Assembly (NCBI GenBank): GCA_002430405.1
Contig: DJBM01000032.1
Span: forward strand, 861 to 28,839
Length of the DNA stretch: 27,979 bases
Reading direction: 5' to 3'
Source: Actinobacteria bacterium UBA5976
GTDB taxonomy: Bacteria > Actinomycetota > Actinomycetes > S36-B12 > UBA5976
Shown: in pieces, positions 1 to 12,030 of the stretch
How positions within the stretch are numbered: position 1 is the stretch's first letter
How the letters are laid out: every line of letters starts with the position of its first letter
Made by a program: the position numbers and the translations under genes
Notes under the pieces: model-generated
The model's database searches: none
What the model was told of the DNA's origin: nothing
What the model saw: the letters and a program-made list of their open reading frames with translations, nothing else

Positions 1-1677
1 GACACAATGCGCGGTGGAAAATTTCAGAATAACTGGCGCATGGCCGAACTACATGCCAAGGAATCCCCAGATCGGGTTTGGGAACTTGAAACTTATGGTG
101 CGCTTTTTGACAGAACTCCAGAAGGCAAAATTAGCCAAAGAAACTTTGGTGGACACGAGTATCCACGTCTAGCTCACGTCGGTGACCGCACTGGCTTGGA
201 ATTAATTCGCACCATGCAGCAAAAAATTGTTTCATTACAGCAAGAAGACTTTGCTGAAACCGGTGACTACGAATCAAAAATCAAAGTTTTTGCAGAATTA
301 ACAATCACGGAAATTCTTAAGACTGACGGCAAAGTTTCTGGCGCACTTGGATACTGGCGCGAATCTGGTGAGTTCGTAGTATTCGAAGCTCCAGCCGTTG
401 TTCTAGCAACCGGTGGCATTGGCAAATCCTTCAAGGTAACTTCCAACTCATGGGAAGGTACCGGCGACGGTCACGCCCTAGCTCTTAAAGCTGGCGGAAA
501 CCTAATGCACATGGAATTCATTCAGTTCCATCCAACTGGCATGGTTTGGCCACTTAGCGTTAAAGGCATCTTGGTAACGGAATCTGTACGAGGTGATGGT
601 GGCGTTTTACGTAACTCAGACGGCAAACGCTTCATGTTTGACTACATCCCACCGGTTTTCGTAAAGCAATATGCAGATACTGAAGAAGAAGCCGATCGCT
701 GGTACACCGATCCAGATAACAATCGTCGTCCGCCAGAACTTTTGCCCCGCGATGAAGTTGCTCGTGCGATTAACTCTGAAGTTAAAGCCGGCAGAGGTTC
801 CCCGCACGGTGGTGTATTCCTAGACGTTTCAACGCGACTAGCTCCAGAGGTAATTAAGGCTCGCCTGCCATCAATGTGGCATCAGTTCAAGGAACTTGCT
901 GACGTGGACATCACCAAGCAAGCCATGGAAGTTGGACCTACTTGCCACTACGTAATGGGTGGCGTACAGGTGGAACCAGACACGGGTGCAGCAACAGGAG
1001 TGCCAGGATTATTTGCAGCTGGCGAAGTTGCTGGCGGTATGCATGGCTCAAACCGTCTAGGTGGAAACTCTCTATCTGATCTTTTGGTATTCGGACGCCG
1101 CGCTGGCGTTGGAGCGAGTGAATATGTAACTGCACTTGGATCCAAACCAAAGTTGGCGCAAGCTGAAATCGATCGCGCATTAGCTTCTGCGCTTGCACCT
1201 TTTAAGGGTGATAGCAAAGAAAACGCTTACGCAGTGCATTATGAACTTCAACAAATGATGAACGACTTAGTCGGCATCATTCGGGTAGGCGCTGAAATGA
1301 AAGAAGCGATTGAAAAACTAGAGACCATGAAAGAGCGCGCAAAACACGTGAGCGTTTCTGGTGACACAAAGTTCAATCCAGGTTGGCATATTGCGCTTGA
1401 CCTGATGAACATGTTGCTTGTCAGCGAAGCGGTTGCCAAGTCAGCCATGGAACGCGAAGAATCTCGTGGTGGACACACTCGCGATGACTTCCCAACTATG
1501 GATCCAAAGTGGCGAGCAATCCATGTCATTACGTCATGGGACGGTTCAAAGGTAAGCACCAAGCGCGAATCATTGCCGCCAATGCCAAAGGAATTGGCTG
1601 GACTGTTCGACGTTGAAGAATTAAAGAAGTACCTGCTGCCAGAAGAACTTGCGCAGCTTGGAATGGGAGGCAACTAA
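1..1677 (+). CDS. sdhA: Succinate dehydrogenase/fumarate reductase flavoprotein subunit (actinobacterial Sdh1, Rv0248c-like); 5' end lies outside the window
   Basis: Frame is open from base 1 (DTMRGGKFQNNWRMAELHAKE). Flavoprotein motifs QFHPTG, TESVRGDGG, HYVMGG, HGSNRLGGNSL, ESRGGH. The N-terminal FAD-binding GxGxxG is missing, so the gene is truncated by the window edge. Confidence 0.95.
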   Translation, partial: DTMRGGKFQNNWRMAELHAKESPDRVWELETYGALFDRTPEGKISQRNFGGHEYPRLAHVGDRTGLELIRTMQQKIVSLQQEDFAETGDYESKIKVFAELTITEILKTDGKVSGALGYWRESGEFVVFEAPAVVLATGGIGKSFKVTSNSWEGTGDGHALALKAGGNLMHMEFIQFHPTGMVWPLSVKGILVTESVRGDGGVLRNSDGKRFMFDYIPPVFVKQYADTEEEADRWYTDPDNNRRPPELLPRDEVARAINSEVKAGRGSPHGGVFLDVSTRLAPEVIKARLPSMWHQFKELADVDITKQAMEVGPTCHYVMGGVQVEPDTGAATGVPGLFAAGEVAGGMHGSNRLGGNSLSDLLVFGRRAGVGASEYVTALGSKPKLAQAEIDRALASALAPFKGDSKENAYAVHYELQQMMNDLVGIIRVGAEMKEAIEKLETMKERAKHVSVSGDTKFNPGWHIALDLMNMLLVSEAVAKSAMEREESRGGHTRDDFPTMDPKWRAIHVITSWDGSKVSTKRESLPPMPKELAGLFDVEELKKYLLPEELAQLGMGGN

Positions 1678-2432
1678 TGGGTTACTTAGCATCGATGCGA
1701 ATTTGGCGCGGTAACAGCGAAGCCGGTCAACTTGAACAACACAAAGTTGAAGTTGGCGAAGGCGAAGTTGTACTCGACGTAATTCATCGTCTCCAGGCAA
1801 CCGAAGCACCAGATCTAGCGGTTCGTTGGAACTGCAAGGCTGGTAAGTGCGGATCTTGTAGTGCTGAAATCAACGGCAAGCCAAGCCTTATGTGTATGAC
1901 TCGGATGAATACTTTTGCTGAAGACGAGGAAATCACGGTAACCCCACTTCGCGCCTTCCCGGTTATCAAGGACCTTGTTGCAGACGTTTCATTTAACTAC
2001 AAGAAAGCTCGCGAGATTCCAGCTTTCAAGGGCCCGGAAAACCTAAAACCAGGCGAGTACCGCATGGAACAAATCGATGTCCAGCGCAGCCAAGAGTTCC
2101 GTAAGTGCATCGAATGCTTCTTGTGCCAGGACACTTGCCACGTTATCCGTGACCATGAAGAAAACAAAGAATCGTTTGCTGGACCTCGGTTCTTCATTCG
2201 TCTTGCTGAACTCGACATGCATCCGTTGGACCAACTTGATCGGAAGCGCGATGCTCAAGAAGAGCACGGTCTTGGAATGTGCAACATCACCAAGTGCTGT
2301 ACTGCAGTGTGCCCAGAACACATCAAGATCACTGACAACGCAATCATTCCAATGAAGGAACGCGTTGTGGATGAGAAATATGATCCGCTGGTATGGCTAG
2401 GACGCACAATCGGACGACGTAAAGCGGACTAA
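1677..2432 (+). CDS. sdhB: Succinate dehydrogenase/fumarate reductase iron-sulfur subunit (Rv0247c-like)
   Basis: Cys clusters NCKAGKCGSC, CIECFLCQDTC and CNITKCCTAVCP. ATG overlaps the sdhA stop (TAATG). Confidence 0.95.
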   Translation: MGYLASMRIWRGNSEAGQLEQHKVEVGEGEVVLDVIHRLQATEAPDLAVRWNCKAGKCGSCSAEINGKPSLMCMTRMNTFAEDEEITVTPLRAFPVIKDLVADVSFNYKKAREIPAFKGPENLKPGEYRMEQIDVQRSQEFRKCIECFLCQDTCHVIRDHEENKESFAGPRFFIRLAELDMHPLDQLDRKRDAQEEHGLGMCNITKCCTAVCPEHIKITDNAIIPMKERVVDEKYDPLVWLGRTIGRRKAD

Positions 2433-2441
2433 CCTCTACGT

Positions 2442-4019
2442 ATGGGGATAACACAGTCAGGGCTACCAATTGATCCGGTTTATGGACCGCAGTCACGCGA
2501 TGGCTGGGATCCAGCAGCTGAGTTAGGCGAGCCTGGCGCATTTCCATACACACGCGGTGTCTATCCCTCGATGTACACGGGGCGACCGTGGACTATGCGT
2601 CAATATGCAGGCTTTGGCACCGCTGCTGAATCTAACGAGCGTTATCACCAACTACTTGCCGCTGGCACAACTGGCTTAAGTGTGGCTTTCGATCTACCAA
2701 CCCAGATGGGCTATGACTCCGATCACCAACTTGCCCAAGGTGAAGTTGGCAAAGTTGGGGTCGCAATTGACACAGTTGACGATATGAAGGTGCTATTTAA
2801 TGGCATTCCGCTCGATCAAGTTTCAACTTCGATGACTATTAATTCACCAGCAGCAACTTTACTTTTGATGTATCAATTGGTCGCTGAAGGTGAAGGCATT
2901 TCTGGATCGGCGCTAAATGGCACAATTCAAAATGATGTGCTCAAGGAATACATTTCGCGGGGAACTTACATTTATCCGCCAGCACAGTCACTGCGCCTAA
3001 CGACAGATATTTTTGCCTATTGCGCAAAAGAAATTCCGCGCTGGAACACCATTTCTATTTCTGGATATCACATGGGTGAAGCAGGTGCTACTCCTGCGCA
3101 AGAAATCGCATTTACCCTCTCTAACGGAATTGAATATGTTCGGGCGGCAATTGCTGCTGGAATGCAAGTTGATGATTTTGCGCCTCGACTCGCTTTCTTC
3201 TTTGTTTCGCGCACCACGCTGCTAGAAGAAGTTGCCAAATTCCGAGCAGCGCGCCGGATTTGGGCGCGCGTAATGAAAGATGAATTTAAAGCGGTCAACC
3301 CAAAAAGCCAGATGTTGCGCTTTCATACCCAGACTGCTGGAGTTCAATTAACTGCGCAACAACCCGAAGTTAATCTGGTTCGCGTTGCTGTTCAAGGATT
3401 AGCTGCTGTCTTAGGTGGAACTCAATCTCTTCACACAAATTCTTTTGATGAAGCGATCGCTCTTCCAACGCAAAAAGCAGCCCGGTTAGCACTTCGCACC
3501 CAACAAGTACTGGCGTATGAAACTGACATAACTGCAACCGTGGATCCATTTGCTGGTTCGTATGTAGTTGAGGCTTTGACTGATGAGATTGAGGTTGAGA
3601 TTCTGCGCCTGATGGGCAAAGTTGAAGAATTTGGCGGCGCAACTAAAGCAATTGAAGTTGGTTTTCAAAAAAATGAAATCGAAACTTCGGCATACGACTA
3701 CGCACTGCAAATCGATAAAGGCGAGCGGATAATTGTTGGAGTTAATAAATTCGCAATTGATGTTGAAGAGAAGTACGAACCACTTCGGGTAGATCCAGCC
3801 ATTGGGGAGCAGCAAGTAGCTCGCTTAGCTGCGATTCGTGCTTCGCGCGATAACACCGAGGTCGCGCGCGCTCTTGGCGCAATTAAAAAAGCGGCCGAGT
3901 CCACTGATAATTTGATGTACCCAATGAAGCAAGCCCTTGCTGCGCAAGCCAGTGGCGGCGAAGTTGCTGATGCGTTACGCGAAGTCTGGGGCCGATATAG
4001 CCCGCCAGACATTTTCTAG
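2442..4019 (+). CDS. mcmA: Methylmalonyl-CoA mutase-family catalytic (N-terminal) subunit lacking the B12-binding domain
   Basis: Motifs [56 protein letters not shown]. No DxHxxG domain. TAACCT lies 6 nt before the ATG. Confidence 0.92.
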
Positions 4020-4023
4020 ATCG

Positions 4024-4119
4024 AAATTACTACTTAATTTCCAACTAGCTTACTTTGCTGGAAATTACTACTTAATTTCCAGCAGGCTTATCGTGACCTA
4101 AATTACTACTTAATTTCCA
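4024..4119. repeat. Three exact copies of the 20-bp repeat AAATTACTACTTAATTTCCA at a 38-bp period, with two unique 18-bp spacers
   Basis: Copies at 4024-4043, 4062-4081 and 4100-4119. Internal dyad AAATTA-ctact-TAATTT. The middle copy extends to a perfect 12-bp stem (4056-4067 with 4073-4084). Confidence 0.95.
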
Positions 4120-5872
4120 TCAGTTCAGTTCCCGTTGCGACTGTTGCTCCAACTTCAGCAGTTAAGCCAGTGATAATTCCTGCCTTATGAGCAGTGAGCG
4201 GTTGTTCCATTTTCATCGCTTCTAAAACAATAATGAGATCACCTTGGGCAACTTCTTGCCCTTCTGTTACCGCAATTTTTACGATTGTTCCCTGCATTGG
4301 GGCTACTACTGAATCCCCGCTACCTGCCGCGCCAGATTTTTTGTTGATTTTGCGCGCTGGTTTCTTCGCGCTACCGGCCGAACCGATCGACATATCAGAA
4401 GGCAGAATTACTTCGATGCGTCGCCCATCAACCTCAACTGTGATTGGAGTGCGCTGCGAAGTTTCAGCCAGATCACCAGCAGCGCCAGCGAACGCAGGGA
4501 TTGTGTTGTTGAACTCGGTCTCAATCCATCGAGTGTGGACAGTAAATGGCGCGCTTGGATCAGCTGGCGCAAATGCCGGGTCACTCACAACTGCCCGGTG
4601 GAAAGTAAGTGCAGTAGCAATGCCATCGATTTCAAATTCCGCAAGTGCCCTGCGGGAACGTTCAAGGGCTTCTTGGCGATTTCGGCCAGTAACTATGAGT
4701 TTTGCAAGTAACGAATCAAAATTACCGCCAATTACATCGCCTTTTTCAAAACCTGCGTCTAATCGAATTCCTGGTCCACTTGGCGGATTCCAAAGCGTTA
4801 ATGAACCTGGGGCTGGCAAGAAACCGCGTCCTGGATCTTCGCCATTAATTCGAAATTCTATTGAGTGACCACGAAGCTCTGGATCGTCATATCCGAGTAC
4901 TTCACCTTGGGCAATTCGAAATTGTTCGCGCACTAAGTCAATACCAGCAACTTCTTCTGAAACCGGATGCTCAACTTGAAGGCGAGTATTTACTTCTAAG
5001 AATGAAATTGTGCCATCTAGGCCAATCAAGAATTCACACGTTCCCGCGCCAACGTATTTGGCTTCCTTCATGATGGCTTTGCTTGATGAATACAGTTCAT
5101 CAATTTGGGACTGCGAAAGGAATGGCGCTGGGGCTTCTTCGACAAGTTTTTGATGTCGACGTTGCAACGAACAATCGCGCGTTGAAACAATTACTACGTT
5201 GCCGTGCTCATCAGCCAAACACTGTGTTTCAACGTGACGCGGGTTGTCTAAATAACGCTCGACAAAACATTCGCCTCGACCAAATGCAGCAACTGCCTCA
5301 CGAACAGCGGATTCGAACAACTCAGGAATTTCTTCTAAGTTACGTGCCACCTTTAGGCCACGACCACCACCACCGAATGCTGCCTTAATCGCGATTGGCA
5401 ATCCATGTTCTTTGGCGAATGCCACAACCTCACTGCTGTCTTTTACGGGATCTGGAGTTCCCTGAACTTGCGGAGCGCCGGCGCGCGCAGCAATGTGACG
5501 CGCCGAAACTTTGTCACCTAAGTCGCGAATTGCTTGTGGCGGGGGACCAATCCAAATCAAGCCAGCCGAAATAACGGCTTGGGCAAAGTCGGCATTTTCA
5601 GATAAAAATCCATATCCAGGGTGAACTGCATTTGCGCCAGATTTTTTCGCTGCATCAATTAATTTTTCAATAACTAGATAGCTTTCAGCAGCTGAACTGC
5701 CACCGAGGGCAAACGCCTCATCTGCAACTTTTACATGCAGAGCATCACGATCGGGATCAGCGTAAACCGCCACACTTGCTATGCCAGAATCGGCGCAGGC
5801 ACGTGCCACTCGGATTGCGATTTCGCCACGATTTGCAATCAGTACTTTTTCAATCTTTCGATTGGCGCCCAC
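4106..5872 (-). CDS. bccA: Acetyl/propionyl-CoA carboxylase alpha subunit (biotin carboxylase fused to BCCP; AccA3/BccA type)
   Basis: [51 protein letters not shown] and the biotinylation motif EAMKM. GTG start with AGGGAG upstream. Confidence 0.95.
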
Positions 5873-5920
5873 GTAAACTCCCTGAATTTCAAGACTTAAG
5901 TAATTAGTTAACTAAGTCTA

Positions 5921-6538
5921 TTAGTCCCAAAGTTGGGTCCATTCAATGCTCATGTCCATGGCAAATTCGCGCAGAAGTGCCAGAGATATCCCGCCTACTG
6001 CTGGACTATCACCACTCATTCGAGTTATAAATGCGGCGCTTTTTCCTTCGTGCGTGAATCCACCTGCGACTGCTAACGGCTCACCAGTTGCAACATAGGC
6101 AGATATTTCGGCATCAGAGATGTCGGCGAATTCAACTTTTGCACCGGCTACGCCAGATCTCACTTCGCCCGTAACTAAATCTTTAACCCAGTGTCCGGTG
6201 TGAAGGTACCCTGACTTGCCACGCATTTCTTTCCAGCGCTCGATGGCAATCTCTGGAGTTCCCGGTTTACCCAGAGACTGCCCAGCAAATTCCAGCATTG
6301 AATCTGCGGCAATAACTAGTAGTGCGCGATCCTGCGTGACCGTGATATTTTCGCAAACGGACTCCCCTTTAGCTTTCGCTAAAGCGATGCACAAATTCTC
6401 GGTATTGATCGGCGAAAGTTTGGCCGTTAGTTCATCTTCATCAACGTGACTAACTTGAACCAATGGTGTGATGCCCGCATTTTTTAAAAGGGAATAGCGC
6501 GAGATAGAGGCTGATGCCAGTAAAACTGTGCGAGACAT
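5921..6538 (-). CDS. maf: Maf family nucleotide pyrophosphatase
   Basis: VLLASAS..R..LL, ADSMLE, GKP, YVATGEPLAVAGGF. Start moved from 6589 to ATG 6538 (MSRTVLLASAS) to avoid overlapping the epsilon gene. Confidence 0.88.
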   Translation of the reverse strand: MSRTVLLASASISRYSLLKNAGITPLVQVSHVDEDELTAKLSPINTENLCIALAKAKGESVCENITVTQDRALLVIAADSMLEFAGQSLGKPGTPEIAIERWKEMRGKSGYLHTGHWVKDLVTGEVRSGVAGAKVEFADISDAEISAYVATGEPLAVAGGFTHEGKSAAFITRMSGDSPAVGGISLALLREFAMDMSIEWTQLWD

Positions 6539-6555
6539 ATGCGATACGTGCTGAT

Positions 6556-6771
6556 CTAGTAAGGATGTGGCAGCGCAGAACGACGCCAAGTGCCAGGACC
6601 GTGCTCAAATGATTTACGAACGCTTCGATGCGGGGCATTCCATTCAGGGCGCAGTGAATTGCTCGACTTGGTCTGTGCGTTTAGCGCAGCTTGCGCCGTG
6701 ATAACCATAATCACGGCAGCAAGTTCTTGTGGATCAGGCACACCTTTAACAACTTTGAAATCCTGGCTCAC
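6556..6771 (-). CDS. pccE: Acyl-CoA carboxylase epsilon subunit (PccE/AccE)
   Basis: [14 protein letters not shown] at the N-terminus and a W-containing basic tail. 4-nt overlap with the carboxyltransferase stop, which is the usual position for this gene. Confidence 0.85.
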
Positions 6772-8357
6772 AGCGGGATGTTTCCATGCTTTTTAGGAGG
6801 AAGAATTTGTCGTTTACCGCGCAGCGAGCGAAGCGCCTTTACAACGCTTACTCGAGTTTCATGAGGCAAAATTACCCGATCTATATATCCGCGTTCAGCG
6901 GCGACGTAAGGATTTGCAAACTTATCGTCGTACTCTTCCAAAAGGCGAGCGCGTTCTTCCTCGGGCCTCTTAGCGTCAGCTAGTTCTTTACGGTACAAAA
7001 CGTTAACTGCTCCTTGCGATCCCATTACTGCAATCTGAGCACTTGGCCAAGCTAAGTTGATGTCGGCTCCGAGGTGCTTGGAGCCCATGACGTCGTAGGC
7101 GCCGCCATAAGCCTTGCGAGTAATTATTGTCACGAGCGGCACAGTTGCTTCTGCATATGCGTAAAGCAACTTAGCGCCACGACGAATAATTCCTTGCCAT
7201 TCTTGGTCAGCGCCTGGCAAGAAGCCTGGCACGTCAACCAAAGTAATAACTGGAACATTGAAAGCATCACAGGTTCTAACAAAACGAGCCGCTTTCTCAC
7301 TGGCATCAATATCGAGTGTGCCTGCAAATTGCATCGGCTGGCTGGCAACTAACCCAACAGGTCGTCCTTCCACTCGGCCGTATCCACAAATAATGTTTGG
7401 CGCAAACATACTTTGAGTTTCTAGGAACTCACCGTCATCAACGATTACCTCAATAACTTTATGCATGTCGTAAGGCTGATTTGGTGAATCGGGAATGATT
7501 GTGTCCAAAGTTTGATCATGCTCGGAAATTTCTAGATCCGCTTCAATTTCAACGTAAGGCACTTCATCCATATTGTTGCTTGGTAAAAATGACAATAAGT
7601 TTTTAACGTAATCCAGCGCATCATCTTCATCGGTAGCCATGTAATGGGCAACACCTGATTTAGTGTTGTGTGTTCTTGCGCCGCCTAAGTCTTCGAATGC
7701 AACTTCTTCACCAGTTACCGTCTTGATTACTTCTGGTCCAGTAATGAACATGTGTGAAGTTTGATCGACCATGACAATAAAGTCAGTGAGAGCTGGAGAG
7801 TAAACTGCGCCACCTGCACAGGGCCCCAGCACAAGTGAAATTTGAGGAATTACTCCAGATGCATGTGCATTACGCTTAAAAATTTCACCATACAAACCCA
7901 GAGACACAACGCCTTCTTGAATGCGTGCACCACCAGAATCATTTATCCCGATCATAGGAACACCGGTTTTCAGTGCAAGGTCCATAATTTTGCAAATCTT
8001 TTCACCGAATACTTCGCCAAGTGAGCCACCGAACACTGTGAAATCCTGTGCAAAAACACAAACTTGTCGGCCATCAATAGTTCCGTAGCCAATAATTACG
8101 CCATCACCATATGGACGTGTTTTTTCTAAACCAAAGTTATGCGACCGGTGACGAACTAAACCATCAATTTCTTGGAACGAACCTTCGTCTAAGAGTCTTT
8201 CGATACGCTCCATGGCAGTTAGCTTGCCTCTAGAGTGCTGTTTTACTGCAGACTCAGCCTGCCGTATTACCGCATCCTCACGTCGATTTTCCAAATCTGC
8301 AATTTTTCCTGCAGTGGTGTGGATATCAACGGCCTTCTTGGCTTTATCGGCGCTCAC
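6768..8357 (-). CDS. pccB: Acyl-CoA (propionyl-CoA) carboxylase carboxyltransferase beta subunit (PccB/AccD5 type)
   Basis: [37 protein letters not shown]-terminal [13 protein letters not shown] Shine-Dalgarno before the GTG. Confidence 0.95.
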
Positions 8358-8395
8358 TGTTTCCTCCGTACTAGTCCTTCGCCTACCCTAGCGAT

Positions 8396-9217
8396 GTGGC
8401 TAAAAAAGATTTGAGACAACCGCATCCAGCGCTTGATCCTGCTCTTATATTAAGCGAGTTAGCTAAGGGAACCTCAAACTGGCGCGATGTAACAGTACTT
8501 TCTCAAGTCACGTCCACAAATGACGTAGCTCTTGCTCGATTGCAGGAATTCCCAGATGCGCAAGTCTTTGTGGTCACCGCTGATGAACAATTGGCTGGCC
8601 GAGGAAGATTGCAAAGAGAATGGACTAGTCCATTCGGTGCTGGCATTGCCTTAAGCATCGCAATTCCAACCATGCTCCTTAGTTGTCCTATCGCCGCCAT
8701 CCCACTGGTAGTCGGTGTGGCTGTTAACACTTGCTTACTTCGGGAAAACGTAGCTGCAAAATTGAAATGGCCAAATGACCTAATGATTGTGAAGGAATCT
8801 GGTGAATTCGCAAAAGTTGGTGGGATTCTCGTGCAACTTCAGGTTGACCACGTTGTTATCGGAATCGGAATAAACGTTAACTTAGATTTGGCTGAGCTTC
8901 CGACAGAATTTGCAACCTCACTTGCACTTGCTGGAAAAAAGATTCAAAGAGAAAAACTGATTGCACAAATTGTATGTGAACTTGAAATAGCAACCAAGAA
9001 TAATTTGGAAAATTGGCATGACCAATATATCTCCATGAGTTGCACACTAGGCAATCAAGTAAAGGTGACGAACTTAAAACAAGAATTACTCACTGGACTA
9101 GCAAAATCAATCACGACCTCGGGCGCCCTGATACTAGAAACAGAAAATGGCCCAATTGAGATAATTACTGGAGATGTTACAAGTTTACGATCCAAAGAAT
9201 CTGCGATTATTGATTAG
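8396..9217 (+). CDS. birA: Biotin-[acetyl-CoA-carboxylase] ligase
   Basis: STND, EQLAGRGR..REW, KWPND, KVGGIL, GIGINV. Divergent from pccB. Confidence 0.93.
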   Translation: MAKKDLRQPHPALDPALILSELAKGTSNWRDVTVLSQVTSTNDVALARLQEFPDAQVFVVTADEQLAGRGRLQREWTSPFGAGIALSIAIPTMLLSCPIAAIPLVVGVAVNTCLLRENVAAKLKWPNDLMIVKESGEFAKVGGILVQLQVDHVVIGIGINVNLDLAELPTEFATSLALAGKKIQREKLIAQIVCELEIATKNNLENWHDQYISMSCTLGNQVKVTNLKQELLTGLAKSITTSGALILETENGPIEIITGDVTSLRSKESAIID

Positions 9218-9672
9218 TTTTGTTCGACAGTCGCTTCTTGCGCTGGAAATACCCAGTTGTGATAACCCCAGAAACGGAACATAGTTCCTAAAATTAGACC
9301 TACGAAGTTTGCGCTGATGTTATCGGCCAAAGCACTTTCATAACCCAACACATAATGACTTATCCAAAGGCACGACAAAGCAATTACCATGCCAATCACA
9401 TTGAAGACAAAAAACATGGTGTACTGGCGTCGAATCGTTGATCGGCTACGCTCCTTGAACGTCCAATGACGATTGCCTACAAATGCGAAGGTTGTTGCCA
9501 CAAGAACACTCAGGACTTTAGCAGTTAGCGGCCGGTCGAAAAGCACACCTTCACCACCTGCGAAACGTAAAAAATTGAAAATAACTAGGTCAATCAGGAA
9601 GGCAATAAAGCCAATCACACCAAATTTTCCGAGCTCGTTTCGCAAGTTTGCTATCAGATTTTTTAATTTCAC
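9214..9672 (-). CDS. GtrA family membrane protein
   Basis: KFGVIG..AFLID, FVGNRHWTF, FRFWGY..WVF and four hydrophobic segments. GTG 9672 preferred over ATG 9678 because TAATCT lies exactly 6 nt upstream of it. Confidence 0.8.
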   Translation of the reverse strand: MKLKNLIANLRNELGKFGVIGFIAFLIDLVIFNFLRFAGGEGVLFDRPLTAKVLSVLVATTFAFVGNRHWTFKERSRSTIRRQYTMFFVFNVIGMVIALSCLWISHYVLGYESALADNISANFVGLILGTMFRFWGYHNWVFPAQEATVEQN

Positions 9673-9795
9673 CTCCATAGATTAGCCAATGTTCAGGGCG
9701 ATTACGAGTATGGGTGTCTTGATATGCCCAGAGTGCGGTAAATTTGGGTTTCGAAGCAATTTCATAACCTGCTTTATCCGCTAAGGAGCTTTGCT

Positions 9796-10473
9796 ATGAG
9801 CCAGCGCATATTGGTCATTGAAGATGATCAATCGATCGCTGAAATAGTTGGAATCTTACTTAGAGGCGAAGGATTTGAAGTTTCATATTGTGCCGATGGA
9901 CTTCAAGCAATGAACGCATTCACCACGGTGCTTCCAGATCTGGTTCTCCTTGATCTCATGCTTCCCGGACAAGATGGCATAGACGTATGCCGCGCAATTC
10001 GCAAAACTAGTGGGGTACCGATTGTGATGCTGACTGCGCGCAGTGACACCCAAGATATTGTCACGGGCTTGGAGTCTGGCGCTGATGACTACATTGTAAA
10101 ACCAATTAAGAATGAGGAGCTGCTCGCGCGAATTTGCGCCAGACTTCGCACAATTGAAATTCCAAAAGAAAATGAAATTTCAGTAGGAGATTTAGTTATC
10201 GACATTGCTGGACACAGCGTCAAACGTGGTAATACTTCTATTTCGTTAACGGTTCTTGAGTTTAAATTACTTCTGACTTTAGCTAAGCGACCATGGCAGG
10301 TATTCTCTCGCGAAACGCTATTAGAAGAAGTTTGGGAATATCAGCACTCAGCAGACACTAGATTGGTGAATGTTCACGTACAACGCCTCCGCGCAAAAAT
10401 TGAGTTAGACCCAGAGAATCCACAGGTTGTAGTAACAGTACGCGGTGTTGGTTACAAAGCAGGGCTTACTTAA
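9796..10473 (+). CDS. mtrA: Two-component response regulator MtrA
   Basis: LLDLMLPG receiver domain. MtrA-typical PWQVFSRE..LEEVW, ADTRLVNVHVQRLRAK, TVRGVGYKAG. AAGGAG Shine-Dalgarno. Confidence 0.95.
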   Translation: MSQRILVIEDDQSIAEIVGILLRGEGFEVSYCADGLQAMNAFTTVLPDLVLLDLMLPGQDGIDVCRAIRKTSGVPIVMLTARSDTQDIVTGLESGADDYIVKPIKNEELLARICARLRTIEIPKENEISVGDLVIDIAGHSVKRGNTSISLTVLEFKLLLTLAKRPWQVFSRETLLEEVWEYQHSADTRLVNVHVQRLRAKIELDPENPQVVVTVRGVGYKAGLT

Positions 10474-10476
10474 CTC

Positions 10477-12030
10477 GTGAGCGCATTGGCTCAATTTGGA
10501 TTTTCGCTGGCTACAACTTGGCGAAAAAATCTACAACTTCGCCTTGTTACCATCACAATTCTTATATCCACAACAGTTTTAAGCATCGTAGGAATACTTT
10601 TAGTAAATCAGGTCACGACTGGGTTATTGGAAACTAAACAGCAAAGTTCCATAGCCGAAGCCACAGCAGCAAGACTTGAAGTTCAACGTTTGCTCGATGC
10701 AGCAGATGCGGGATTGGTAGCTCCCAACAGCACCCGAATTGTAGATTCAGTGATTACCGCACTGGCGATTCGATCTGGCTCACCAGGACTCTATGATGCC
10801 TTATTTCTAAGTGACCCAGACTTAGTTGGGGCCCCAGAGCGTGGTACTGAATTAATCTCCCAAGCATCAATACCCGAGGCACTGCGTAGTGCAATCACCG
10901 AACGTGACAGGCAGGCGTGGGCATACGGAACTTTAGTTTACGAAGGTGGCGTAACTAAACCAGGGTTAATTGTCGGGTCTCCAGTGACAATCCCACGAGT
11001 AGGTGCCTATGAACTGTATTTACTCTTTCCTCTTGATAAAGAGCAAAAGACCATCGATTTGATTCGACGGGCTGTTTCCATAACTGGAATTATTCTGTTG
11101 ATAGGTTTAGCGATTCTTGCTTGGTTCGTAACTTCGCGTGTGACCGAACCAGTTCGCGAAGCCGCCCAAATTGCAGATCAAATTGCATCTGGCGATTTAG
11201 ACCAGCGAATGCAAGTGCGAGGCGAGGATGATATTGCTCGTCTTGCTGGCTCAGTCAATGAGATGGCAGCTAGTTTGCAGCGACAAATTGTTCGCCTTGA
11301 GACTCTTTCGCAATTGCAACAACAATTTGTCTCCGATGTATCTCACGAATTGCGCACACCATTAACTACGGTACGAATGGCAAGTGAAATGATTTACGAT
11401 GCCCGTGGTAATTTCGATCCAGACATGGCTCGCTCGGCAGAACTCCTGCGAAACCAAGTAGACCGATTCGATATTTTGCTAAGTGACTTGCTTGAGATGA
11501 GTAAAATTGATGCTGGCGCATCACCACTTATTTTTGGTGCGGTGGATTTAGCTAAATTGACAGAAACGCTTTTACAAGAGGCGAACCACATCGCGCGAGA
11601 GCACAGCACATCATTTAATTATTCAGGAACATCAAATGCCTTAGTGTTTGCCGACCATCGAAGGGTTTCGCGAATTATTCGAAACTTATTAGTAAATGCA
11701 GTTGAGCATTGTGAAGGTTCCACTATCGATGTTCAGGTCGCAACCAATGAATCCTGTGTATCAATTTCTGTTCGAGATCATGGTCAGGGAATTGCAGAAG
11801 CAGACATCCCTCGAGTTTTTGGTCGGTTTTGGCGAGCAGATCCAGCGCGGCCTCGCACCCTCGGCGGCACTGGTCTTGGCCTTTCTATTTCGGCGGAAGA
11901 CGCAGAACTTCATGGTGGCAAGATTGACGTTTGGGGTTTGCCCGGCAAAGGCGCACAATTCGTCTTATCGTTGCCAAAAACCCAAGAGGGTAAAATCACC
12001 CAAGTTGCAATTTTGGCAGGTGCGCCATGA
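10477..12030 (+). CDS. mtrB: Sensor histidine kinase MtrB
   Basis: Two TM segments, HAMP domain, H-box VSHELRTPLT, NLLVNA, DHGQG, GGTGLGL. Lies between mtrA and lpqB. Confidence 0.93.
   Translation: MSALAQFGFSLATTWRKNLQLRLVTITILISTTVLSIVGILLVNQVTTGLLETKQQSSIAEATAARLEVQRLLDAADAGLVAPNSTRIVDSVITALAIRSGSPGLYDALFLSDPDLVGAPERGTELISQASIPEALRSAITERDRQAWAYGTLVYEGGVTKPGLIVGSPVTIPRVGAYELYLLFPLDKEQKTIDLIRRAVSITGIILLIGLAILAWFVTSRVTEPVREAAQIADQIASGDLDQRMQVRGEDDIARLAGSVNEMAASLQRQIVRLETLSQLQQQFVSDVSHELRTPLTTVRMASEMIYDARGNFDPDMARSAELLRNQVDRFDILLSDLLEMSKIDAGASPLIFGAVDLAKLTETLLQEANHIAREHSTSFNYSGTSNALVFADHRRVSRIIRNLLVNAVEHCEGSTIDVQVATNESCVSISVRDHGQGIAEADIPRVFGRFWRADPARPRTLGGTGLGLSISAEDAELHGGKIDVWGLPGKGAQFVLSLPKTQEGKITQVAILAGAP

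Follow-up and report, generated by a model that had tools for sequence, protein, structure and literature searches.

Between the convergent genes for a methylmalonyl-CoA mutase large chain and an acyl-CoA carboxylase alpha chain (here 'bccA') lie three identical copies of a 20-mer, separated by two spacers of equal length and different sequence. The question raised by this locus is what kind of array it is, and how its repeats stay identical while its spacers do not. All coordinates given here are positions in the window, the whole 27,979-nt stretch of DNA that was analysed. G000 denotes the genome it comes from, other G numbers denote relatives and L042 to L045 are metagenome contigs. The G000 assembly comprises 1.31 Mb in 148 contigs, is 62% complete and has a GC content of 46%. 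The nearest named record to the carboxylase is from a 'Candidatus Nanopelagicales' MAG (86% amino-acid identity); the host genome is a member of the Nanopelagicales (acI-type). The remaining genes of the window are all housekeeping genes.

The 20-mer, R (AAATTACTACTTAATTTCCA), occurs in three exact copies (R1 to R3, Table 1) with a period of 38 bp; with four C and no G its GC content is 20%. The 18-bp spacers A (ACTAGCTTACTTTGCTGG) and B (GCAGGCTTATCGTGACCT) are identical at 8/18 positions and have GCTTA in common. On the forward strand the mutase gene ends in TTC TAG (stop at 4017-4019) and is followed by ATCG, R1, spacer A, R2, spacer B and R3. Tandem Repeats Finder (TRF) reported a period of 38, 2.6 copies and a score of 126. 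Sequence and TRF together bear out the sequence-only reading on the identity of the three copies, their GC content, their period and the dissimilar spacers. The open reading frame likewise confirms its observation that the third copy supplies the end of bccA, since ATG GAA ATT AAG TAG on the minus strand lies inside R3. That reading had also called the 20-mer palindromic. The arms AAATTA and TAATTT do indeed flank a 5-nt loop, CTACT, and the palindrome is therefore a partial one.

Table 1. Features of the mutase/bccA junction in window coordinates. MFE, minimum free energy (kcal/mol) of the forward (+) and reverse (-) strand.
Feature	Position	Strand	Remarks
Methylmalonyl-CoA mutase large chain gene	2442..4019	+	525 aa; Pfam PF01642, E 7.7e-218
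Repeat copy R1, non-coding	4024..4043		4 nt past mutase stop; 7-bp hairpin GAAATTA/TAATTTC; MFE -6.0 (+), -9.5 (-)
Spacer, type A	4044..4061		3' end GCTGG lengthens R2 stem; same type in L044
Strongest hairpin of the array, centred on R2	4056..4084		MFE -16.3 (+), -15.6 (-)
Repeat copy R2	4062..4081		
Spacer, type B	4082..4099		orthologous in G020, G015, G014 and L043
Repeat copy R3	4100..4119	-	bccA stop TAG (4106-4108) and codons M E I K; hairpin down to 6 bp; MFE -1.0 (+), -4.0 (-)
Acyl-CoA carboxylase alpha chain gene, 'bccA' (biotin carboxylase and BCCP domain)	4106..5872	-	588 aa; Pfam CPSase_L_D2, Biotin_carb_N, Biotin_carb_C, Biotin_lipoyl

A search for R at up to three mismatches returned exactly three sites; none of 100 dinucleotide shuffles contained three or more. 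When the search was extended to the whole of G000 at the same tolerance, R was found nowhere else and is thus confined to a single locus, so that it does not represent a dispersed repeat family. The spacers had no further copy in G000 at up to two mismatches. The suspicion that assembly had multiplied one true copy is contradicted by three observations. All 60 words sampled from 3800-4400 were present in 12 DNA runs from 6 studies. Contigs of two runs from different studies (the source sample possibly among them) covered the array with 0 differences. Arrays of two and three copies were also found in independent relatives with diverged flanks.

Copy number and origin of the repeated unit

The genus was searched (41 species genomes) with a 17-mer part of R at up to one mismatch. 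The array was present in four of these genomes, with three copies in G000 and G020 and two in G015 and G014. An exact-match scan of metagenome contigs added four further loci: L042 and L045 have one copy, L043 has two and L044 three. The search of genome and relatives that the sequence-only reading had suggested for the 20-mer therefore gives one locus in G000 and one, two or three copies in its relatives. In the one-copy contigs only 10 nt separate the two stop codons. The spacers of G020, TCAGGCTTATCGTGAACG and TCAGGCTTACCGTGATCG, differ at 2/18 positions and its repeats at 1/20. Each G020 copy is followed by TCAG, which makes the unit 38 bp, including CTG ATG GAA ATT AAG TAG. Both spacers of L044 are of the A type of G000 and differ at 3/18. 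In these two recent duplicates the divergence of repeat (1-2/20) and spacer (2-3/18) is about equal, as expected of recent neutral duplicates.

A tree was constructed from 630 flanking bases. In it, all eight sequences of the array clade (the array bearers together with the two one-copy contigs) group as a single clade (100/100). Within that clade the neighbour of the one-copy forms is G020 with its three copies (88/92; an unresolved trifurcation in the drawing), and G000, with spacers A and B, pairs with L044, with two A spacers (83/84). B-type spacers are present in both subclades. This placement of the one-, two- and three-copy forms requires that units were gained or lost four times or more. 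Contigs from two RNA libraries (X14 and X15, freshwater metatranscriptomes) represent one-copy relatives, 90-99% alike, and skip from 4023 to 4100; they span the mutase gene into bccA and are uninformative on transcript ends, on strand and on whether a single transcript is involved. The existence of one-copy relatives, with such bridging contigs in RNA libraries, indicates that the array is dispensable. Transcription in these relatives may pass through the lone hairpin.

When a one-copy junction is duplicated in tandem, the only source sequences are the mutase end at its left and the bccA end at its right. The left half of the duplicated unit corresponds to the final codons of the mutase gene with its stop (about 4006-4019), followed by ATCG (4020-4023). 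We modeled the spacer as a chimera in which TCAG, taken from the side of bccA, is joined to the 14 nt that close the mutase end, a stretch comprising the final codons, the stop and the 4 nt leading up to R; together with R this gives 4 + 14 + 20 = 38. Spacers were compared with this chimera using 20000 shuffles per spacer. The G015 spacer matched it at 12/18 positions (43/20000 shuffles as good), the G014 and L043 spacers at 11/18 (242/20000 and 313/20000), spacer B of G000 at 10/18 (772/20000) and the second spacer of G020 at 9/18 (1711/20000); the rows are related and do not constitute independent tests. The fit of the B-type spacers identifies the unit as the whole convergent junction and the spacers as decayed pseudo-ends of the mutase gene. 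The spacers are related to one another, orthologous across species and not foreign DNA.

Spacer A did not fit the junction model significantly (8-9/18; 6255/20000 shuffles reached 8/18). We note that it differs from spacer B at 10/18 positions, though its bearers, G000 and L044, are close relatives of genomes that have only B. The branch is too short for point mutation to account for this difference. Spacer A is either an old paralogue lost by the other lineages or the product of another route.

The array is thus a locus-specific minisatellite, produced by head-to-tail duplication of the whole 38-bp convergent junction, and its copy number (1, 2 or 3) rose and fell among close relatives. As a variable repeat it is of an ordinary kind, and it is not a guide-RNA or defence array. 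Mycobacterial MIRU-VNTR loci are intergenic tandem repeats of variable copy number that take in gene ends, and the intergenic tandem repeats of Ehrlichia ruminantium are reportedly 'of actively variable copy number'. As in such VNTRs and minisatellites, units of tens of bases lie head to tail between genes, derive from local sequence and leave both flanking genes intact, and their number varies among close relatives. The units are homologous over their full length (over 38 bp in G020, and likewise in L044), and copy number differs at the same locus across the eight related sequences. Local ancestral sequence accounts for the B-type spacers (9-12/18), but not for the A type. The array differs from VNTRs in being very short, with at most three copies, and in having as its unit a whole convergent junction, of which the hairpin half is conserved like coding sequence and the other half decays.

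In most other members of the genus one or two genes, a PLP-dependent decarboxylase and a pyridine nucleotide-disulphide oxidoreductase, lie between the mutase gene and bccA. Searches of G020, G015 and G014 found no such decarboxylase, and G000 has just a 31%-identical paralogue. Its absence from the array clade indicates that a deletion brought mutase and bccA stop to stop. Where the decarboxylase is present, some 90 nt of non-coding sequence between it and the mutase stop are strongly conserved (L040:1022-1110, and at the same place in L035, L036, L037 and L038). This stretch gave no Rfam match; it may be an undescribed leader or riboswitch.

Folding and conservation of the 20-mer

R folds into a hairpin with the arms GAAATTA and TAATTTC around the loop CTACT. 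Pairing continues into the flanks (GATCG ahead of R, CCATC behind it), which lengthens the stem to 11 bp with one mismatch, and in L043 the extended stem is perfect. The middle copy of G000 has a perfect 12-bp Watson-Crick stem (4056-4067 with 4073-4084, loop 4068-4072); R1 and R3 are weak. From the mutase stop to the hairpin of the middle copy the distance is 36 nt, and from the bccA stop it is 21 nt. Of 16 copies, 13 fold more stably as the bccA-sense strand than as its complement, through G-U pairs, which points to RNA rather than a DNA cruciform.

Five lineages have the gene-proximal B spacer in common, and conservation was assessed across them. The interior, non-coding R varies at 1/20 columns and the B spacer at 8/18, compared with 71/107 flanking third codon positions and 18/214 first and second positions (Fisher's test, interior R vs third positions p 2e-7, vs spacer p 0.0067); this is a comparison of few lineages, which are related to each other. 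Ascertainment does not explain the conservation of R, since four of the five lineages were found by flanking homology and not by the repeat. The interior R has thus been kept almost unchanged, and the mutase end, where it was copied into the interior, has degenerated into the 'spacers'. The non-coding arm of the bccA copy itself and its synonymous sites are also invariant in the array clade. The sequence-only reading had argued that simple tandem duplication would not keep repeats identical while spacers diverge. That argument does not hold: G020 and L044 display plain 38-bp duplications with nearly equal spacers, and purifying selection on the hairpin accounts for the difference between repeat and spacer, with conversion by the coding copy as a possible other cause of the identity of R.

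Within the 38-bp clade the stem is invariant and hence uninformative on compensation. A sister clade, which has kept the oxidoreductase beside bccA, carries a different unit at the bccA end (GAGATCAAGTAA AACTTGATC AATACCCATK) with a period of 31 bp. Four copies are present in G051, three in G012, two in six genomes and one in five; the arrays are located at L051:1-278 (G051) and L010:1400-1520 (G012), and also in L006, L008, L009, L011, L046 and L047. The stem GATCAAGT/ACTTGATC spans the bccA stop codon. Compensated variants of it occur in G050 (GATTAAGT/ACTTAATC) and G021 (AATTAAGT/ACTTAATT). All 8/8 pairs are always paired (100%) and two of them have changed on both sides, a result equalled by 12/500 shuffles (8 sequences, 5 distinct rows). 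Compensatory change of the kind that marks a conserved RNA hairpin is therefore present, in 2/8 pairs and five distinct rows, and in this small sample it appears that pairing, not sequence, is what is kept. One idea is that the 31-bp unit would likewise join the bccA end to the oxidoreductase end (AACTTGATCAA vs AACTTAATTCAA).

A consensus terminator scan gave no site in 4020-4120 and no excess over shuffles in 1-12000. The stem of R is A/T-rich and is followed by no U-tract; it lacks the G+C-rich stem and U-tract of a canonical intrinsic (L-shaped) terminator. A permissive Rfam scan of 3500-4700 returned three hits only, all far below thresholds. R does share its position with bidirectional intrinsic terminators: in the more distant genus members G052, G003 and G016 a canonical GC-rich one with flanking A-/T-tracts stands directly after the bccA stop. 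R differs from these in its A/T-rich stem of 6-12 bp, in having no flanking A-/T-tracts, in overlapping the stop codon and in being tandem.

REP elements and BIMEs form dispersed families of hundreds of copies and are linked to RAYT transposases. Like R, those of enterobacteria are short, imperfectly palindromic sequences that lie, frequently in little groups, at the 3' ends of genes or between convergent ones, and have been proposed to act as transcript-end hairpins. Unlike them, R occurs at one locus in three copies of the same orientation, one of them coding, and no Y1 transposase was found in G000.

Candidate function and alternative explanations

We consider it probable, though by no means certain, that the locus is a copy-variable duplicated junction whose conserved hairpin R is a putative element of transcript 3' ends, acting as terminator and/or stabiliser. 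Stacked hairpins for two convergent transcripts had been one of four readings offered from the sequence, and it is the one that we favour. We infer that R is a transcript-end hairpin; such a function is probable, and the structure and origin of the array are well explained.

The proposed mechanism starts from a unit that comprises the end of the mutase gene (final codons and stop), a further 4 nt and the hairpin R, in which lie the bccA stop and the last four to five codons of that gene. R would act mainly on bccA-sense RNA and, being palindromic, on mutase-sense RNA as well. It would terminate transcription weakly and/or hold up 3' exonucleases where the junction is too tight for a normal terminator. 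Overlapping one stop and lying 4 nt after the other, a single R would be masked by terminating ribosomes on both strands. An interior copy would be clear of the ribosome, so that duplication would yield a hairpin free to fold; in G000 the middle copy has become the strong one, with its 12-bp stem. The E. coli terminator tR2 is reported to be almost wholly repressed by the ribosome a few bp after a stop codon and to attain maximum activity beyond about 30 bp (PMC4824070). REP elements are a known parallel for hairpins that reduce read-through and stabilise the mRNA upstream: a preprint describes REP325 as a partial terminator and mRNA stabiliser, with REPs between convergent genes accompanying higher expression of both (10.64898/2026.03.23.713779). 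The extra copies of R may be useful or just tolerated.

The main alternative is that the array is a neutral slippage repeat. Duplications that span both stops leave both genes whole and would be tolerated, and the interior copies would have no function; their identity would then be due to recurrent contraction and re-expansion, or to conversion from the coding copy. The variation between one and three copies over short branches, the existence of one-copy relatives and the like decay of repeat and spacer in the recent duplicates of G020 and L044 are all in keeping with this, as are several other gene-end arrays in the compact G000 (median convergent gap 24.5 nt). Slippage, however, shifts whole 38-bp units and should homogenise the spacers as much as the repeats, yet the orthologous B spacer is variable at eight of its columns and the adjacent interior R at one. 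The invariance of the non-coding arm and synonymous sites of the gene copy, and the spacer flanks that lengthen the middle stem of G000 to 12 bp, also speak against neutrality. We regard a purely neutral repeat as possible but rather unlikely.

Sites 38 bp apart for a sequence-specific DNA-binding protein (an operator, a nucleoid protein or a partition-like system) would account for the dyad symmetry, and for the conservation of all 20 positions of the interior copies, including the 5-nt loop, which is more than a bare hairpin needs. This explanation is improbable. The 20-mer is present at one locus only in G000 (up to three mismatches), at two gene ends rather than at a promoter, its stem extensions vary from copy to copy, one-copy relatives exist, and the sister clade retains the pairing but not the sequence. 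The operator or nucleoid-protein interpretation of the sequence-only reading thus finds no support.

Nor does its suggestion that the 3' end of bccA bears the scars of repeated integration; in this explanation, which we judge very improbable, a mobile element would have entered and left the site several times, and the repeats would be reiterated att sites. It is true that the repeated part is the 3' end of a gene and that the array clade is without the two genes lying between mutase and bccA elsewhere in the genus. These two, however, are metabolic genes of an ordinary kind, and no repeat adjoins them towards the mutase gene; the window contains no integrase or transposase, a search for the Y1 transposase (PF01797) found none in G000 (62% complete), the period is a constant 38 bp and it is the junction that gave rise to the spacers.

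The last reading, a miniature guide-RNA array of CRISPR-like or TIGR-like type with spacers against foreign DNA, has next to no probability left: it shares with CRISPR and TIGR arrays the regular repeat-spacer geometry only, and its spacers are paralogous, orthologous across species and host-derived from the mutase end, with a repeat of just 20 bp of which one copy is coding. The spacers do have exact 18-mer matches in 1 and 3 viral contigs, but these lie in unrelated contexts, do not extend and are about as many as a rough estimate predicts by chance. TIGR-Tas arrays are accompanied by a Tas effector with a Nop domain. The sequence-only reading was correct that no cas, tas or recombinase gene is in the window, and this extends to the genomes searched: neither Cas1 (PF01867; positive controls responded) nor Nop (PF01798) was found in G000 (62% complete), G020 (94% complete), G015, G014, G051 or G012. 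A false lead is thereby removed, the 'spacers' being decayed copies of a gene end.

Hairpins and arrays at other gene ends

A crude ORF call gave 170 convergent gene pairs in G000, with a median stop-to-stop gap of 24.5 nt. The 117 testable convergent junctions had a mean z of -1.50, compared with -0.54 for 234 coding controls, and z was below -2 in 27% of the junctions and 8% of the controls (Mann-Whitney p 1.6e-5). Roomy junctions carry bidirectional terminators built of A-tract, GC-stem and T-tract; tight junctions carry stop-codon hairpins. As G000 uses canonical terminators elsewhere, R would be a poor terminator at best.

TRF applied to the whole of G000 identified at least six additional arrays (periods of 31-66 bp) in which the unit includes or adjoins the end of a gene, in most cases its stop codon; a hairpin is present in most of them. 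On contig C25:507-596 (L150:358-447) a 37-bp unit is present in 2.4 copies, and its palindrome, GAATTTAATTAAATTC, covers the stops of two other convergent genes. Relatives have at this locus a single hairpin (GCAAGAATTT..AAATTCTTGC) over the stop, or in G015 a diverged two-copy form; in G051 and G011 the hairpin is compensated (GCAAAAGAATTT..AAATTCTTTTGC). The array on contig C131:14448-14611 (L151:349-512) has 4.4 copies in two alternating variants. Further gene-end arrays are found at C129:307-386, C137:6764-6855, C29:8901-9082 and C74:3107-3173. The repeating of gene ends seems to be a habit of G000. Our literature search on Nanopelagicales intergenic tandem repeats and on tandem duplication at convergent genes found neither the locus nor the habit described.

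A tentative extension, which we hold to be rather unlikely, is that in very compact genomes duplication of a stop-to-stop junction would be an adaptive route to a bidirectional transcript-end signal, the freed interior copy being kept and strengthened by selection. Such a route would explain why the bccA end is repeated in two forms (38-bp and 31-bp) and why arrays occur at other gene ends. If the interior copies do act as terminators or stabilisers, they would illustrate how compact genomes gain transcript-end signals without intergenic room. The comparison of R with its spacers is in any case a natural experiment, in which, following a single duplication, one half of a unit decays at about the silent-site rate and the other is conserved like first and second codon positions. 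It marks a stop-codon hairpin as the selected element in a streamlined freshwater actinobacterium that is unstudied at the bench.

Elsewhere in the window a biotin-protein ligase gene (8396-9217, forward strand) and a GtrA-family gene (9214-9678, reverse strand) have stops that overlap by 4 nt (9214-9217); a gap of -4 is common among the convergent pairs of G000.
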